This document shows, piece after piece, positions 33,546-55,400 of a DNA stretch of 64,000 nucleotides. Location of the stretch: the NCBI GenBank assembly GCA_964016885.1, contig OZ024741.1, forward strand, positions 84,196,001-84,260,000. Direction: 5' to 3'. The notes beneath the pieces were generated by a model. The model saw nothing but the letters and a program-made list of their open reading frames with translations, was not told the origin of the DNA and did no database searches. The first letter of the stretch is position 1, and the number at the start of each line of letters is the position of its first letter. A program made the translations under genes and the position numbers. Source of the stretch: Eledone cirrhosa. Lineage: Eukaryota.

Positions 33546-33613
<68 letters not shown>

Positions 33614-33650
33614 ATTAAATAAATGGAAACTATATTTATAAAACCATATT

Positions 33651-33716
33651 TATTTCATTATATATATTTCAGGGATATCATATTAACAATATGCTATGCC
33701 TTCCTCAGACAAAATA
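33651..33716 (-). ncRNA. Hammerhead ribozyme in 3' pLTR
   Basis: Same sequence as 38928-38993. Confidence 0.8.
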
Positions 33717-35087
33717 CAATATAAACAGTTTTATAGATAAATAGATTCGACATACCGTAACAACATCGACTTGTATTTGAAAAGGTTGATTTGGCAGTGA
33801 AAAAATTGTACACAGAGAGAAAGAAAGAGAGAAAAAAAAAAAAAAAAAGAAAGTAAGACAGAAAACGAAGAAAAAGAAGAAAAAGAAGAAATGCATGGAA
33901 CAAAATAGAGAGATGGAAAGATAGATAAAGAGAAGAACTTCATGTAAAGAAACAGAAAGAGATATATATATATATATAGAGAGAGAGAGGAAATAGAGAT
34001 AGATACATATATATATAGAAAATTAGGTAGTGGGACGTCTGTTGAGTAAACGTATCAATGATACATTTATTTATTTATTTATTTATTTAGCTCTAGTATT
34101 AATGTAAGGGAGATATATATAGAGAGAAAAAATATAGAGAGAGAAAAAATATAGAGAGAGAAAAAATTTAAAAATAACCAGATATAGGCGAGGCGTAAAA
34201 AACCCTATGTTTTAATGTAGAGGTATTAGTATTTATAAAAACAGCCACTATATTGTAAATATCAGTATTCCTGAATGAGACAAGTATCCATAATGTGTGA
34301 AAATTAATGATCTTATGTTTAGTTTTTTAAAAAAATTCATATGTTTATGTGATAGCTACAAACATCCATGTGAATCTACATGATCAACTCTGCAAACCCT
34401 AGGTTCACGGAAAACATTCTCAATGTGGTATAAACATTTAAGTATACATATATGTGTATTACTATTCCTGTCTTTACTCTACAAGATTATCTATCAAGCA
34501 GAAATAGAGAGCAGATTTCAGTATACTAATAAAAATATATATTAGAAACAAAACTAAAAAATAACAATAATAATAATAAGTAATAATAAAATAGAAAACT
34601 AAAAAATATTACGAAAGAATATTACATATTAAAAAATATTACATATTAAAAAATTTACATATTAAAAATATTAAAAATAAAAATATTAGAAAATACTACA
34701 ATAATAAAAATAAAAATAAACCACAAAGATCAACCCTTCAAAATTAATTGACAATATATTGCCAAGTTCATTATAAGCATCAGAGTCGAAAAACAGATAA
34801 AGCCAAAACATTATCTATCAAATCATCTCTAGCAAAGATCATTTCAAAAAAGATCATTTCAAAAAGTTTAGGATGCCCAATTTGGTCTACATGTGTTCTT
34901 ATATTTAATATAGAAGTTTATCTAGTGTAACGTTTATTCGAAATATTTGGAGCATCAGCTTTTAGGGTAGTTAATTTTTCATGAGGAATGTTTAAATAAA
35001 AATAAAATAAAAATAAAAAGAATAAAAAGAAGGAATCAAAGATTTATCGGCTAGTTTCCCATATAATTATAAATCAAACTAAATATA

Positions 35088-35753
35088 CTACATTTTAAAT
35101 TTAAATTTATATTTAAACGTTGAGTTTAATCTATGTTTGCAAAAACTGAATAAATTTGTCCGTAGATTAAGGGAATTTTTAGATTTTAGTATAAAGAATA
35201 TCTCCTCTGCGCAGAGGTCACATGTCTCAGAGGATGAATTAAAAGGAATCCCTCTTGAGACTATATTCCAAGCCGTCGAATATCTAACGTTATCTAGCTT
35301 AAGTTGCCAGAGTACGCCTGATAGTGCCGTTGAAGATTTTTTGCTTGGATCTGTGAAAGAATTCTTGTGGTTATTATAGCGAAGTTTAAATTCCGTCGAT
35401 GTGGAACCGACGTAGTTAAAAGAATTAGAGTCAGTATTAACATTACAATTGTATACTATATTTTTAACTAAGCAGTTGTTATTTAACGGACATTTAGATC
35501 TATCTCTACAGTTACATTTGTTAACTTGTATATTATTTATGCTATTATCACTAGGTTTTAAGTTCCTATTATTTATTCTATTAATATTTTGTGCTAAATT
35601 TTTGGTGGATGAGTAGGTTAATTTTATTGTATGTCTATTGAAAATTGAGTGATACCTATGTGTTCTAGGGAAGCGATTATCAAGAGCTTTGAAAAATAGT
35701 TTAGCGATGTGGGTTTTAATGTTTAGTGAGAAAGGGGGGGGGGGGCAAACCAA
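35088..35753 (-). CDS. PLE protein C-terminal part: thumb, linker and GIY-YIG endonuclease (out of frame with RT at a G12 run)
   Basis: PPFSLNIKTHIAK, IFNRHTIKLTYSS, CNCRDRSKCPL, NIVYNC...YVGST...RYNNH, CDLCAEE, CKH. Confidence 0.9.
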   Translation of the reverse strand: MVCPPPPFSLNIKTHIAKLFFKALDNRFPRTHRYHSIFNRHTIKLTYSSTKNLAQNINRINNRNLKPSDNSINNIQVNKCNCRDRSKCPLNNNCLVKNIVYNCNVNTDSNSFNYVGSTSTEFKLRYNNHKNSFTDPSKKSSTALSGVLWQLKLDNVRYSTAWNIVSRGIPFNSSSETCDLCAEEIFFILKSKNSLNLRTNLFSFCKHRLNSTFKYKFKFKM

Positions 35754-37306
35754 ATTATGTTCCTAGTTCTATTTCTTTTTTGGCCTTTGGAATTATTGTA
35801 ATGCTTTCTATTATAGTTGTTAAGGTTGTTGCCGTAATTAAAAAAGTTGTTACTTTGTTTAGTTTGTCTATCATTATCTATGTACACAATCTTATCAGCA
35901 TATCCTGCTCTAGCTAATGCTTCATTATAGTATTGGGCTTTTTCGTCGAAAATCTTTCTATTCGACGAGATCCTAGAGATACGTTTTTGAACAGAGTTTA
36001 CTATAGTGTTTTTGACAGATCTGGGGTGGTTAGAGTTAAAGTTGACATAGTTTAAGTTTTCATTCAACTTGTGAAAAAGATAGTGAAGACATGTGTTGAG
36101 ATTTAATGTTATATCTAGGAAATTGACTATTCTATGGTTGTTCTCAATTTCTATTTTAAGATTAAAGTAATTAAAAAATTGTGTAATTTGTTTACATTTT
36201 CTATTTAGTTCAGAGTTATTATTATCAATAAGTAAAAGCATGTCATCTCTATATAAACCTCCGGTAGTACCAGGTATTTTCCTATGTAGCGAATTGATTA
36301 AAAATAAGCCCACAAGGTCAGTTACCTGAGCTGAGTCGGATGATCCCATAGTTATGTCAAAATTGCTATCTCTATCTGCTCTGGTCCATAGTTGGTCATT
36401 AAATTCTATCAAAGTTTTCCTAGCCGATAATATAATATGCATTTCATTGCTAGTTAGGTCAGTATGTTTGAATGCGTAATTTAGTGCCTTATTTAGTAGA
36501 TTAGGGGTAATAGAAGAATAATAGTTAGCTATATCAAGTTGAATAAACTTATTATTATTGTTATATTTAATTTGCTTAAACCACTCAACAACCTCTCCAG
36601 TTCCCTTCCACAAGCTCAGGTTAGATAAACAATCCAAGTTCTTAATTTGCTGTATCACCCTGTCAAGAATGTTTTTGCTTAATTTGCCCAGGTCCGATTT
36701 TGATGGTGCGATCAATCTAACTGGCAGGTCATTTTCAAAATTCCTCTTGTGATCTTTCATATTGATCTTCGGTTTCCTGGGCACGAAAGGTTGTGTTCTG
36801 TTCTCAATTTCCAACTCGTGCATTATACAAGATGCTTCGACATTCATTTTCTCAAGTTCGGCCTTATCTGCTACCTTGTACTTTTTCCTCAGCTCTTTCA
36901 GTATCAGGCCATTATACATGTCTTTCTGCACTCCATAGAGGTTGTTGGTCTTGTCAGATTTCACCAAGATCTTCTCAGTTTTCTCTAAGCTCTCAATGTT
37001 ATCCTTAATGCCTTTCAGATATTCCTGGCCTTTGAAGTTTCTCTTGAATTTGACCCCTTGTATTATAGAAATTATATCGTTTTCAAAGTCAGATAAAAGT
37101 TTGTTAGGGGGTGGATTTCTTTTAGATTTGAAAACTTTGTTTAAGTCCGAGACATTTTCGTTTGTATTAGATTTATCAAAGTGGAATGCTCGCCACCTGA
37201 TTCTCCTTATAAAAGAGTCAGATTTATCTATTAATTGTTTTATAAAGTCTTTGTTTCTAGGTAGAGGTATGTCTTTTAAAGAGGAAGTAATCTTAAAGAA
37301 TTCCAT
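35723..37306 (-). CDS. PLE reverse transcriptase, 527 aa
   Basis: FIRRIRWRA, KSDKTNNLY, KDHK, LDIANYYSSI, TMGSSDSAQVTDLVG, LYRDD, VNFLDITLNL, SNHP. Confidence 0.93.
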   Translation of the reverse strand: MEFFKITSSLKDIPLPRNKDFIKQLIDKSDSFIRRIRWRAFHFDKSNTNENVSDLNKVFKSKRNPPPNKLLSDFENDIISIIQGVKFKRNFKGQEYLKGIKDNIESLEKTEKILVKSDKTNNLYGVQKDMYNGLILKELRKKYKVADKAELEKMNVEASCIMHELEIENRTQPFVPRKPKINMKDHKRNFENDLPVRLIAPSKSDLGKLSKNILDRVIQQIKNLDCLSNLSLWKGTGEVVEWFKQIKYNNNNKFIQLDIANYYSSITPNLLNKALNYAFKHTDLTSNEMHIILSARKTLIEFNDQLWTRADRDSNFDITMGSSDSAQVTDLVGLFLINSLHRKIPGTTGGLYRDDMLLLIDNNNSELNRKCKQITQFFNYFNLKIEIENNHRIVNFLDITLNLNTCLHYLFHKLNENLNYVNFNSNHPRSVKNTIVNSVQKRISRISSNRKIFDEKAQYYNEALARAGYADKIVYIDNDRQTKQSNNFFNYGNNLNNYNRKHYNNSKGQKRNRTRNIIWFAPPPLSH

Positions 37307-37320
37307 TTTTCCAGTTATAA

Positions 37321-37441
37321 TATAAAGCGCTCAACAGTATTGGAGCAAGATACATGGAAAGTTATATTTAAATTGTTGGGTTACAACTAGTAAATATTTA
37401 TAACTGATATAAAAGCACTCGACAAGTATTTGGAGTATATT
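37321..37441 (-). promoter_or_regulatory. Duplicated hairpin motif RCTC-CA...GAGY-GCTTT(T)ATAT in the PLE 5' UTR (candidate RT positioning signal)
   Basis: Copies at 37408-37437 and 37321-37347, each a few nt from an observed arm endpoint; function is inferred. Confidence 0.55.
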
Positions 37442-37484
37442 TACAATATTAAATAAATGGAAACTTTATTTATAAAACCATATT

Positions 37485-37550
37485 TATTTCATTATATATA
37501 TTTCAGGGATATCATATTAACAATATGCTATGCCTTCCTCAGACAAAATA
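37485..37550 (-). ncRNA. Hammerhead ribozyme in 5' pLTR
   Basis: Same sequence as 33651-33716, 3834 bp away. Confidence 0.8.
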
Positions 37551-38927
37551 CAATATAAACAGTTTTATAGATAAATAGATTCGACATACCGTAACAACAT
37601 CGACTTGTATTTGAAAAGGTTGATTTGGCAGTGAAAAAATTGTACACAGAGAGAAAGAAAGAGAGAAAAAAAAAAAAAAAAAGAAAGAAAGACAGAAAAC
37701 GAAGAAAAAGAAGAAAAAGAAGAAATGCATGGAACAAAATAGAGAGATGGAAAGATAGATAAAGAGAAGAACTTCATGTAAAGAAACAGAAAGAGATATA
37801 TATATATAGAGAGAGAGGAAATAGAGATAGATACATATATATGTTTTTCGACTCTGATGCTTATAATGAACTTGGCAATATATTGTCAATTAATTTTGAA
37901 GGGTTGATCTTTGTGGTTTATTTTTATTTTTATTATTGTAGTATTTTCTAATATTTTTATTTTTAATATTTTTAATATGTAAATTTTTTAATATGTAATA
38001 TTTTTTAATATGTAATATTCTTTCGTAATATTTTTTAGTTTTCTATTTTATTATTACTTATTATTATTATTGTTATTTTTTAGTTTTGTTTCTGATATAT
38101 ATTTTTATTAGTATATTGAAATCTGCTCTCTATTTCTGCTTGATAGATAATCTTGTAGAGTAAAGACAGGAATAGTAATACACATATATGTATACTTAAA
38201 TTTGTATACCACATTGAGAATGTTTTCCGTGAATTTAGGGTTTGCAGAGTTGATCATGTAGATTCACATGGATGTTTGTAGCTATCACATAAACATATGA
38301 ATTTTTTTAAAAAACTAAACATAAGATCATTAATTTTCACACATTATGGATACTTGTCTCATTCAGGAATACTGATATTTACAATATAGTGGCTGTTTTT
38401 ATAAATACTAATACCTCTACATTAAAACATAGGGTTTTTTACGCCTCGCCTATATCTGGTTATTTTTAAATTTTTTCTCTCTCTATATTTTTTCTCTCTC
38501 TATATTTTTTCTCTCTCTATATATCTCCCTTACATTAATACTAGAGCTAAATAAATAAATAAATAAATAAATGTATCATTGATACGTTTACTCAACAGAC
38601 GTCCCACTACCTAATTTTCTATATATATATGTATCTATCTCTATTTCCTCTCTCTCTATATATATATATCTCTTTCTGTTTCTTTACATGAAGTTCTTCT
38701 CTTTATCTATCTTTCCATCTCTCTATTTTGTTCCATGCATTTCTTCTTTTTCTTCTTTTTCTTCTTTTTCTTCGTTTTCTGTCTTTCTTTCTTTTTTTTT
38801 CTCTCTTTTTTTCTCTCTTTCTTTCTCTCTGTGTACAATTTTTTCACTGCCAAATCAACCTTTTCAAATACAAGTCGATGTTGTTACGGTATGTCGAATC
38901 TATTTATCTATAAAACAGTTTATATTG

Positions 38928-38993
38928 TATTTTGTCTGAGGAAGGCATAGCATATTGTTAATATGATATCCCTGAAATATATATAATGAAATA
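38928..38993 (+). ncRNA. Hammerhead ribozyme in the inverted arm
   Basis: UAUUUUGU-CUGAGGA-AGGCAUAGCAUAUUguuAAUAUGAUAUCCCU-GAAAU-AUAU-AUA-AUGAAAUA. Confidence 0.8.
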
Positions 38994-39120
38994 AATATGG
39001 TTTTATAAATATAGTTTCCATTTATTTAATATTGTAAATATACTCCAAATATTTGTCGAGTGCTTTTATATCAGTTATAAATATTTACTAGTTGTAACCC
39101 AACAATTTAAATATAACTTT

Positions 39121-39190
<70 letters not shown>

Positions 39191-45006: not shown

Positions 45007-45069
<63 letters not shown>

Positions 45070-45077
<8 letters not shown>

Positions 45078-45505
45078 TAAATAGAAACTATATTTATTAA
45101 ACCATAATTATTTTATTATATATATTTCAAGGACAACCAAGGCAAATTATGGTGCGCTTTCATCAGACAAAATACAGATTTATTTCATGAATAAATATTG
45201 ACATACCCGGAGAAAAGACAACATTAGCGGTTGAAGCTTCCTGGTTAGCTTCAACCGTTAAGGTTGCCTTTTTACCGGATATGTCAATATTTATTTATAA
45301 ATCAAATATGTATTTTATGTGATGAAAACGCACCATAATTTGCCTTGGTTGCACTTGAAATATATCTAATAAAATAATTATGGTTTTATAAATATAGTTT
45401 ACATTTAATAATATATTGAATATTTACTCCACTCCTGTTGAGTGCTTTATATAAGTTATAAACAGTTTTAAGGTCGTTGAATCCCAACAAATTAAATATA
45501 ACCTC

Positions 45506-45510
<5 letters not shown>
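45070..45510. mobile_element. Older fold-back insert, Naiad-like pLTR subfamily, with HHR at 45109-45174 (-)
   Basis: Diverged arms at about 45070-45238 and 45248-45415; tail to 45510. Confidence 0.8.
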
Positions 45511-45556
<46 letters not shown>

Positions 45557-45561
<5 letters not shown>

Positions 45562-45994
45562 GAAGTTATATTTAATTTGTTAGGATACAACAAGCAAATA
45601 TTTTTATAACTGATATAAAGCACTCAATAAATTATTGGAGTAAAAATACAATATATTAACAAATGGAAACTATATTTATAAAACCATATTTATTTCATTA
45701 TACGTATTTCAAGGACACAAAGCAAATTATGGTGCGCTTTCATCAGATAAAATATAATATAGATCAGTTTTATAAACAAATATTGACATACCCATAAAAA
45801 ATGCGACCATGTCGGTTGGAAGCTGCCGGATAGTGGGGTTACTCAATATTTGTCAATATTTGTTTATAAAACTGATCTATATTATATTTTATCTGATGAA
45901 AGCGCACCATAATTTGCTTTAGTGTCCTTGAAATATGTATAATGAAATAAATATGTTTTTATAAATATAGTTTCCATTTGTTAATATATTGTAT
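45557..45994. mobile_element. Fold-back insert, Naiad-like pLTR subfamily, with HHRs at 45691-45754 (-) and 45885-45949 (+)
   Basis: Tail 45557-45645; arms within 45646-45994. Confidence 0.82.
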
Positions 45995-52474: not shown

Positions 52475-55400
52475 GGTTTCTTTATTAACCACAAGGGTTT
52501 ACACAAAGTAGACATTAAGGACAGTACAGGACAATACAGGACGGTACAAAAGGGCATTTCTGCGTGTAAAAAAAACAAAATAACAGAGGATGTAATAACA
52601 GAACATTGAAAAAATTCCCCAATAGGGGGGAGACTTCCGGGGGACATTCGTGGAGAAAGCCCATTAAAAAGCCACAGTGACCCTGACCACCAGGGCAAGT
52701 GCCCTCTCCCAGTTTTCCACCTTTAAATTACAGACACACACTCAGAGTAGGCCCATTCACTCGAGCCATTCTTGCCTATCTCACCCATCTTTCAACAAAA
52801 TGCTGGGAAGAGAGCACTTCCCTCTCTACCCTGATTTTCCTTTTCAAATGAAATTTGAAAAAGTTAATCAGGGCATCACCGAAGAGGTAAGTGCTCGTCT
52901 TCAGCCCTTTCAAACGCGTTCACCATACTAACTCTTTCGCCATGGCCACCAGACAGCTAAAAATTGCTTGCCCTGCCTGGCTAAAGGAAGAGGGCGGGGC
53001 AATCATCACGATGGACTCAGCTGATAGCTGGATCCGTCCCACACGCGACAGCAGGTGTTCGACATAAACCCACAAGTCGGCAATGCTCGGACACTGGACG
53101 AGTGCGTGCAGGACGGTTTCGTCGCCCTGCGCGCATCTCGGACATGCCAGACCGACGGCAACTCCATGCCTGTAGAGTTTATCCCCAACTGGCAAAGCTC
53201 CTCGGTAGCACTGCCAGGTCAGGGATTTATGGAAGTTGTCCATAGGCCCCGACCCGAAAGTTCTTCCGAAGACATTGGCTAGTTGATTTTCGTCGACGCC
53301 TAGAGTTTCCCCAAGTACGTCGTCGCTCTTCTCCTCCACTAATCTTCTATAGAACGCCAAGGTGGAGTTTCCACCGATCACATTTCCCGATTGGTCTAGG
53401 GCTGTAAGCGCCTGAAGATATTCCAGTCTCCAAGCGCTCCCTCTCAGTCTTCGCTTGATCCAGGACTGCAGCTCCGTCTAGGAGACGAACTGGGGAGAGA
53501 CGCGTCTAGCAAACGGCGACCACACCTGATCACCGTCGAGAAAGAGGTGGATATGTCATAGCCGGAGCGCGTGTCTGCGCATCATCAGCCACGGCATGCC
53601 CAGCCCTCCACGTAGCGGGTGTTGACCGCAGATGCACCGCCTGACCATCGGAGCGCGTCCCTTCCACAAAAAGCGAAAGAGCAAACGCTCCAGCGCAGTC
53701 AGGCGAGGCTTAGGACAAGGCACGACGGTCAGGCGGTAGAATATGACGGACGCGATGTACGCGTTAGCCACCTCCGCTCGACCTTTCAGGGATAGCTTCC
53801 TCTCCGCCCATTTCTGGGTGAGGAGAGAAGCCACCCTGCTCGTCACCTCGTCCTAGTTTTTTACCTCTGGCGGTCCGAACCCAACCAGACCACTAGCAAT
53901 TTAACCGGTCCGTCCGTCCAGCACCCGACGACGCTGTTGGACGGCATGGCCCTGCCTCTCCAGGTGCCGAGCTGCAGGCCCACCGAATTTTTGGTTGATC
54001 ATTGCTCCTGTCACCGCTTTGTATTCTCTTAGTGTAGTGCCGATCGCCTCGATGTGTTTGGCGTTCGACCCCACTACGTTGACATCGTCCGCATATGATG
54101 ACACGGATCTTCCGCATCCTAGTTCGCACGGGACACCCATCAACGTCTCCAGTTTGTGCAGTAATGGCTCGAGAGTCAATACATACAAGAGGGACGAGAG
54201 GGGACATCCTTGGTGGACCGAGCGCATGATGATGAACGGTTCCGAAAGGTGACCGTTCATTCTCACCACAGAGCAGATGTCGCTGTGCATGGCAGTGATC
54301 CAGCCTCTAAAGACGGGCCCAAAGCCAGTCGGCTTCAGGACTACCGCCAGATAATGATGGTCGACCCTAACGAAAGCTTTCGACTTATCTAAATTGATCA
54401 AGGACCCACCCGTGCCAGGTTCCCTAAACACCCTCTCCACGATGTATCGCATGGGGTGGAGGTTGTCATGATGGATCTGTCGGGAATGGCGCAAGTCTGC
54501 GCCTCTCCCAACGACAAGCGCCAACCTCTCTGCTAGCACCTTGGCCAATATCTTGAACTCTGTGTTTAGCAGAGTTATGCGCCTGAAATTATCTATGTTA
54601 TCCCCCTTGTTCGGATTCTTTCTCAGCAGCGCCACTTCTCCTCGGCTCACAGAGCTGGAAATTCTCCCGTTCTGTTGCCAGTTGTAGTAGACGTCCGCCA
54701 AGAGGCCTCCGAACAAGTATGGCATCTGTACGTAAAGTTCATAGCGCAGACCATCCAAACCAGGCGATTTACCACTTGAGCAGCCAGTTATTGCCTCCCG
54801 TACTTCAGCTGCTGTTATCGGCTTTTCGCAACGCTCCGCCTCAGTGGCCGAGAGCCGCGGCAGTCCACCGAAGTAGACACTAAAGTTCATCCCTCGATCC
54901 GGCCCGCCACTGCTCCCGAACAGCGGAGCGAAGTGTCGCTGAATATCTTCAAACATTTGCTCGGAACCAAGTAGCATGCGCCCGTCCTGGTCCACCAAAG
55001 ACCGGGCGTTGCTTTGTTGCCACGACGCGCGTCCGCCACTCGAGCCCATTGAACGGTTTTCGTCACCTCGTGTCTGAGAGCACGCACCCTAGCTCTGACA
55101 AACGCAGCCTTCATGCTTTGCATTGAAGAATTGGTCAAGGGCCAATTTCGCCGCAAGTATGTCGGTCGCGATGCCTTTGCTAAGCGCCTCGTCTATTTTC
55201 TAACTATTTCTCCCTCCGCTCTATTTTTCTCTATTGCTAAAGCCTTACTAAACCTAATGGACTCTATTCTAATCGCTCTTTTCAGAGCAAACCAGCACTT
55301 GTTGTTGGCGATGGCCCCCGTCAACGCCCGCTTAACTAGTTCGCTAATCCGGTCTCTGTAGGCCTTGCGCGCTGGTAATCACGCGTTTAGCTTCCAGTAG

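Follow-up and report, generated by a model that had tools for sequence, protein, structure and literature searches.

The window, a 64,000-nt stretch of Eledone cirrhosa DNA (assembly GCA_964016885.1, contig OZ024741.1), carries two inverted arms of a retroelement inserted in (TA)n. From its sequence marks the element is assigned to the Hydra clade of Penelope-like elements (PLEs). The following features were located, with positions given in the window:

33553 to 33607, no strand: (TA)n target flank at the site-1 end
33608 to 37842, minus strand: main arm (self-comparison), a 3,834-nt monomer plus about 400 nt of tandem repeat, terminating at site 1
33656 to 33708, minus strand: second (3') hammerhead copy, bracketing one monomer together with the 5' copy
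35088 to 37306, minus strand: Hydra-clade ORF for a reverse transcriptase (RT) with a C-terminal GIY-YIG-type endonuclease, in two frames in the window copy
37327 to 37346, minus strand: hairpin 2, made up of GCUC, an upper stem, a UU bulge, and GAGC-GC; start site 2 lies 7 nt 5' of it
37347 to 37355, minus strand: UA-rich tract at site 2, likely a primer alignment box
37354 to 37441, minus strand: 88-nt tail between the two putative RT start sites, including hairpin 1
37415 to 37436, minus strand: hairpin 1, made up of ACUC, an upper stem, a UC bulge, and GAGU-GC; start site 1 lies 5 nt 5' of it
37437 to 37443, minus strand: UA-rich tract at site 1, an imperfect (TA)n match and likely a primer alignment box
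37485 to 37551, minus strand: type I hammerhead motif (CUGAGGA core at 37542-37536, GAAA at 37504-37501)
37838 to 37842, no strand: inversion joint, where the arms overlap by 5 nt
37838 to 39124, plus strand: inverted arm of about 1.29 kb (self-comparison), terminating at site 2, with a hammerhead copy at about 38936-38988 and a hairpin 1 copy at 39042-39063
39125 to 39154, no strand: (TA)n target flank at the site-2 end

The Hydra clade, defined in section 11 of Craig et al. (2021; PMC8557442), targets (TA)n and is "generally <3 kb", which is a tendency and no strict criterion. Insertion into (TA)n was found here, and the monomer exceeds 3 kb because of its long 3' UTR. The ORF contains RWR and DKT (an RWK-type N-terminal motif and DKT replacing DKG); R37, W38, D118, and K119 are invariant in our protein alignment A1. 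The second frame encodes CNCRDRSKC (CxCX5C linker), CDLC (CxxC), and CKH (CxH). A canonical hammerhead motif lies in the pLTR, its core and stems located by script. No Pfam domain matched either part of the ORF, and its named relatives are from Argonauta and Octopus. The element had been described in the first-pass annotation as an autonomous PLE; it is a PLE, but the window copy is not clearly autonomous, as its ORF is split over two frames (35723-37330 and 35088-35762) by a break within a run of C at about 35723-35762. In sister copies the frame stays open for about 745 aa. At least seven Hydra families coexist in this genome at roughly 50-76% mutual identity, some with thousands of candidate matches. 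Broken non-LTR RT fragments, L1/Tx1-like by eye, were also seen in the window at 52920-55088 (minus strand).

Identity between the arms is unbroken from 33608, equivalent to 37442, in the direct repeat, and from 39124, equivalent to 37354, in the inverted one, in agreement with the endpoints given in the first-pass annotation. (TA)n adjoins both arm ends and the junctions are placed to within a few nucleotides by self-comparison; past one mismatch, another 5 and 3 TA letters match at the two ends. The proposed distances from endpoint to repeat (5 nt for hairpin 1, 7 nt for hairpin 2) were recovered, as was the similarity between the spacing of the hairpins (90 nt) and the 88-nt tail. Hairpin 2 lies 20 nt upstream of the ATG.

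Both repeats had been drawn as a stem with a plain loop. The stems were retained, while the loop is better described as an upper stem plus a 2-nt UC or UU bulge. The reported compensatory change of the outer pair, A-U in hairpin 1 and G-C in hairpin 2, is present as described; that pair varies little across the clade, and the informative clade-wide covariation lies instead above the bulge. Folding energies are weak (z of -2.3 for hairpin 1 and -1.5 for hairpin 2), and it is the comparison among relatives that argues for the hairpins. Thirteen weak Rfam matches fell on (TA)n/(GT)n flanks and none on the hairpins. An origin of the hairpin as a relic of hammerhead stem II was rejected: the flanks are the UA tract and AC-U or GC-U and not CUGANGA/GAAA, and the true hammerhead is a separate motif upstream of the hairpins. 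The fold of the window copy had suggested a lower stem between the UA tract and the 3' flank; as a general feature this was also rejected (best z for clade-wide covariation, 1.1). In the long 3' UTR (34936-34953, minus strand) the 5' half of hairpin 1 recurs a third time in degenerate form, lacking the GAGY arm; no arm ends were found at this position.

Sequence comparison indicates that the motif is clade-wide in Hydra. It reads RCUC, variable upper stem, UH bulge, and GAGY, followed by AC-U (GC-U in families A-C). The second repeat, for which the first-pass annotation had suggested a check in related PLEs, is kept in sister subfamilies, other families, and distant relatives. In sister subfamilies (75-97% protein identity) both stems are preserved while the loops have changed. 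Families B-E of the same genome (about 50-60% identity) have two copies each, and their hairpin 1 tolerates an insert of up to about 60 nt. The distant sample comprised 78 metagenome loci at 31-38% identity, 59 with an N-terminus anchor and 49 with at least 150 nt of UTR. The motif was found at least twice in 34 of these 49 5' UTRs (two copies in 31, and three, with one surplus match each, in 3), once in 9, and not at all in 6; some of the last 15 are truncated or degenerate. Two copies were found in none of 674 ORF control windows and none of the 49 reverse strands. The UTR is ordered as hammerhead, UA tract, hairpin 1, spacer, UA tract, hairpin 2, ATG. In relatives, TAYA peaks at positions -8 to -6 relative to the stem, and it is likely to be the primer alignment box. 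An apparent core variant at locus L148 was discarded as only a mutated copy, its family carrying the usual motif. In hairpin 2 of family H the 5' arm is seen in two copies, the 3' arm being unconfirmed.

The covariation test proposed in the first-pass annotation gave a real signal, carried by the pairs above the bulge. Pairs were counted on anchored motifs because MAFFT misaligned the variable loops, and the 76 distinct hairpins were anchored on GCTC and UH-GAGC only, those with no GCTC...GAGC being left out. With relatedness ignored in the shuffles, upper pair 1, directly above the bulge, is Watson-Crick in all 76 (54 C-G, 22 U-A; shuffle mean 44.7), upper pair 2 in 44 of 72 (shuffle, 20.6), and upper pair 3 in 33 of 45 (shuffle, 11.6). 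Six slid-register controls were at or below chance. Looser anchoring gave 75 of 82 paired, a rule that misplaced several 5' arms, and pairing with no bulge was rejected (2 of 82, below chance). The core stem is uninformative by itself because it is nearly invariant; the changes it does show are an outer A-U pair in hairpin 1 of families A-C and GCCC/GGGC in the published consensus Hydra-1_Crog (by eye). The pair above the bulge is nearly always C-G in hairpin 2 and often U-A in hairpin 1.

Ends of genomic insertions were mapped by BLAST, independently of the motif. Among 153 (TA)n junctions, 150 lie within -16 to +2 nt of a hairpin start and 3 elsewhere; the fetched loci include a few that overlap, so that some junctions may be counted twice. 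These positions amount to two 19-nt windows, the query regions upstream of the ATG being 200-340 nt long, and the coincidence of junctions with hairpins is not due to chance. Seventeen ends were readable in other organisms, contig ends excluded: 12 precede a hairpin by 0-4 nt, another 2 do so within about 8 nt, and 3 map to other places (L209, L239, L258). The published consensus sequences Hydra-1_Ajap and Hydra-1_Crog start 2 and 6 nt before the hairpin, respectively (by eye).

The first-pass annotation had also asked whether the spacing of the repeats predicts the length of the tail. In five families of the same genome it does so over a two-fold range: tails of 87, 104, 104, 171, and 164 nt correspond to 5'-arm spacings of 90, 100, 102, 172, and 164 (r=0.998, for five related families, with modal end positions entered by hand and only 2-4 ends for site 1 of B, for D, and for E). 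Correlation with 3'-arm spacing is lower (r=0.87), and therefore it is the foot of the 5' arm that sets the register. With the second repeat retained and the spacing tracking the tail, we consider the central proposal, that two hairpins position two RT starts and set tail length, to be supported.

Site-2 ends of family H (L288-L307) often carry (CA)n followed by (TA)n, and the internal sequence goes on with ACA; the (CA)n may be a product of reiterative synthesis at the start. Among L099-L188, 9 of 19 5' truncation points near the UTR fall in or just before a hairpin (27% expected, p of about 0.04, post hoc), a weak hint that bound hairpins stall the RT.

Pairing of the two sites is close to strict. 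Among 44 two-armed insertions (39 pairs in family A, 4 in C, 1 in E), 43 combine site 1 with site 2, for which independent choice of sites gives a probability of about 3e-12. The sole homotypic pair, L059, also has an internal deletion. In a further (sixth) family the partners of site-2 arms end near site 1 in 17 of 17 cases, with 4 junctions read. The long arm carries either site 1 or site 2, and 9 of 38 fetched copies had no second arm within the stretch taken. A tail on one end is a near-strict rule here. Arms diverge by 0.7% within an insertion versus 3.3% between insertions, and both arms of one insertion represent the same haplotype. Differences are spread evenly over the terminal, upstream, and inverted segments (17:15:20, from 5,934 sites of 23 insertions). 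At the inversion joints, 19 of 23 have an overlap or gap below 10 nt, 18 of those at most 5 nt.

Short MITE-like insertions in the window (6505-6953, 45069-45516, and 45553-45994) are truncated products with site 1 and site 2 from sister subfamilies. At locus L287 (G000:C7, about 80939100-80939780), about nine tandem 73-nt hairpin-1 units reach the site-2 (TA)n junction, and at L077 (1310-1653) three 39-nt hairpin-1 repeats are located at the inversion joint. The repeats of both loci could result from stuttering or jumping of the RT at hairpin 1.

We propose that the hairpins are two copies of a cis-acting RNA element predicted to be bound by the RT-endonuclease, and that two protein subunits, one docked on each hairpin of the same RNA, probably prime opposite target strands; we are fairly confident of this reading. 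The endonuclease would nick both (TA)n strands, and each 3'-OH would align on the UA-rich tract a few nucleotides 5' of a hairpin, where cDNA would start; the start position is observed in our data and the chemistry is that suggested by in vitro work on Poseidon. The two strands would start from different sites, one from site 1 and one from site 2, in either arrangement, as the site pairing indicates. Both cDNAs would copy one template, as the shared haplotype indicates, and stop at independent lengths. Their ends would then be joined with an overlap or gap of 0-5 nt, giving the inverted pair with a tail on a single arm; the length of that tail would equal the distance between the 5' feet of the hairpins, as observed.

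A different reading places recognition on DNA: the GIY-YIG endonuclease would read the motif in a longer cDNA or duplex, cut 5' of each copy, and trim the ends. This likewise predicts that spacing equals tail length. It has been suggested that the tails result from resolution by the endonuclease (Craig et al., 2021; PMC8557442), and the D. virilis endonuclease is cited as requiring tail sequence for DNA cutting (Frangieh et al., 2024; PMC11167929). The pairing data divide: G-U is absent from upper pair 1 in the 76 hairpins, which does not favor RNA, whereas upper pairs 2-3 have 8 G-U against 3 A-C/C-A, a weak lean toward the sense strand. In vitro, the Poseidon starts mark where the RT initiates on RNA (Frangieh et al., 2024; PMC11167929), and the ends studied here lie at target-matching UA tracts, an expectation of priming. 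We regard trimming of DNA as unlikely.

Less probable still is cleavage of the RNA 5' of each hairpin, by the element protein, a host nuclease, or self-cleavage, with the RT starting from the resulting 3' ends as in LINEs. Processing sites typically lie at a fixed distance from a bulged hairpin, and the sites described here share that geometry. Ends of RNA-seq reads for the Anolis Poseidon element PAc also coincide with its start sites, but its initiation is internal on uncut RNA (Frangieh et al., 2024; PMC11167929). Two separately cut RNAs would give about half homotypic insertions, against 1 of 44 observed, and arms that exceed one monomer need an uncut or circular template. That UA microhomology with the (TA)n primer alone sets the ends, the hairpins serving translation, packaging, or stability and adjoining the ends because an entire unit was duplicated, is a very improbable and largely refuted reading: it accords with the UA tract at both ends in most families and with a hairpin 2 near the ATG, but 25 TATA/ATAT starts in the 260-nt region of the window, including a perfect run in the hammerhead, are left unused, a perfect TATA is absent from site 2 of this family, and ends hold at 1-8 nt from the stem while the remaining sequence diverges.

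Returning to priming from two docked subunits, the form of the template can be considered. In the window the hammerhead has an 8-bp stem I with two G-U pairs and a long stem II, and its cut, predicted to follow 37493, would fall about 51 nt upstream of site 1; a Rfam scan gave no detection of it. Hairpin 2 is present solely upstream of the ORF in 37 of 38 fetched copies, and therefore a linear transcript of such a copy cannot template the ORF. The placement of the hairpins in a typical copy thus requires either a circle excised by the hammerhead or a rare longer tandem source. A circular RNA has been proposed for PLEs and retrozymes (Cervera and de la Pena, 2014; PMC4209133), and we somewhat favor it over the tandem. 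A young linear tandem source would leave the repeats equally diverged as well, and L034 (G000:C997) provides one example of such a tandem: the copy there extends about 300 nt beyond the usual end, with both hairpins downstream of an ORF. Gene conversion could alternatively homogenize the arms. It is possible, and we put it forward tentatively, that a dimer bound to both hairpins of the hammerhead-made circle primes both strands at once.

Frangieh et al. (2024; PMC11167929) already reported, in a Poseidon element, two start sites that define the tail. No description of the duplicated hairpin motif or of strict site pairing was found in the full-text literature, a coverage that leaves out most subscription papers and Repbase reports. 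The hairpin is thus a new candidate cis-acting RNA element in a known class of retroelements, for which binding and action as RNA are predicted. PLEs are the sister group of telomerase RTs, and their choice of start sites and tailed inverted insertions have been an open question. A duplicated, covarying 20-nt element at a fixed distance from the start would account for the tail on a single arm, and it bears on the circle. With the motif as a simple marker, Hydra elements can be located and their limits set, and the hairpin may offer a compact signal for RNA-templated insertion tools. If priming from both hairpins of a circle is indeed concerted, the hairpin and UA box would form a portable start signal that would let start position and tail length be chosen by design; a duplicated element of their own would be expected in other PLE clades.

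Initiation fixed by an RNA structure bound by the RT is a feature of hepadnavirus epsilon, the template-flanking elements of telomerase RNA, LINE 3' stem-loops, and the R2 3' UTR. Epsilon is likewise a bulged two-stem hairpin, and all of these elements give a single start per template. The likeness drawn here is functional, with no Rfam family matching the hairpins, and the Hydra element differs in being duplicated, in lying 3' of the start and so being omitted from that end, and in priming from nicked DNA. In L1 twin priming both target strands prime on one RNA, which yields an inversion; the second primer anneals at variable upstream sites and the inversion lacks duplication. In contrast, Hydra has two fixed starts near each other, and the same stretch of sequence is present in duplicate on its arms.

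Among PLEs, the Hydra clade was described by Craig et al. (2021; PMC8557442) as often having a tail at only one end, as is the case here. By eye, most of their six new consensus sequences show the motif at the curated ends; the passages of that paper compared here make no mention of a duplicated hairpin. The tails reported there are 30-40 nt in elements generally <3 kb, compared with 87-171 nt and a 3.8 kb monomer in the present study.

In PAc, the RT starts at two internal sites, on both strands, and RNA downstream of the start sites is needed (Frangieh et al., 2024; PMC11167929). A distance between starts equal to the tail, nicking and extension of both strands, an AT-rich target, and a predicted dimer are features of PAc that the reading proposed here for Hydra shares (PMC11167929), and genomic ends at two fixed sites, their distance equal to the tail, were observed for the elements studied here. 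PAc initiates inside its ORF, in an "AC-rich stem loop," whereas the Hydra hairpins lie upstream of the ATG; the parts of the PAc report compared here describe neither a defined duplicated positioning element nor an analysis of site pairing per insertion (PMC11167929). The Hydra motif is absent, by eye, from the 96 nt printed in Fig. S1 of that report, where two pentamers, GAAAG and ACAAC, are each repeated at a distance of 34-36 nt, close to the tail length of 30-40 nt, by a hand count on extracted text of possibly unreliable order (PMC11167929). Finally, the circular-RNA model (Cervera and de la Pena, 2014; PMC4209133) shares with ours a template for more-than-unit cDNA formed by hammerhead cleavage and ligation; as outlined there it is silent on where the RT starts, and the hairpin positions described here demand a circle or a long tandem if the ORF is to be copied.
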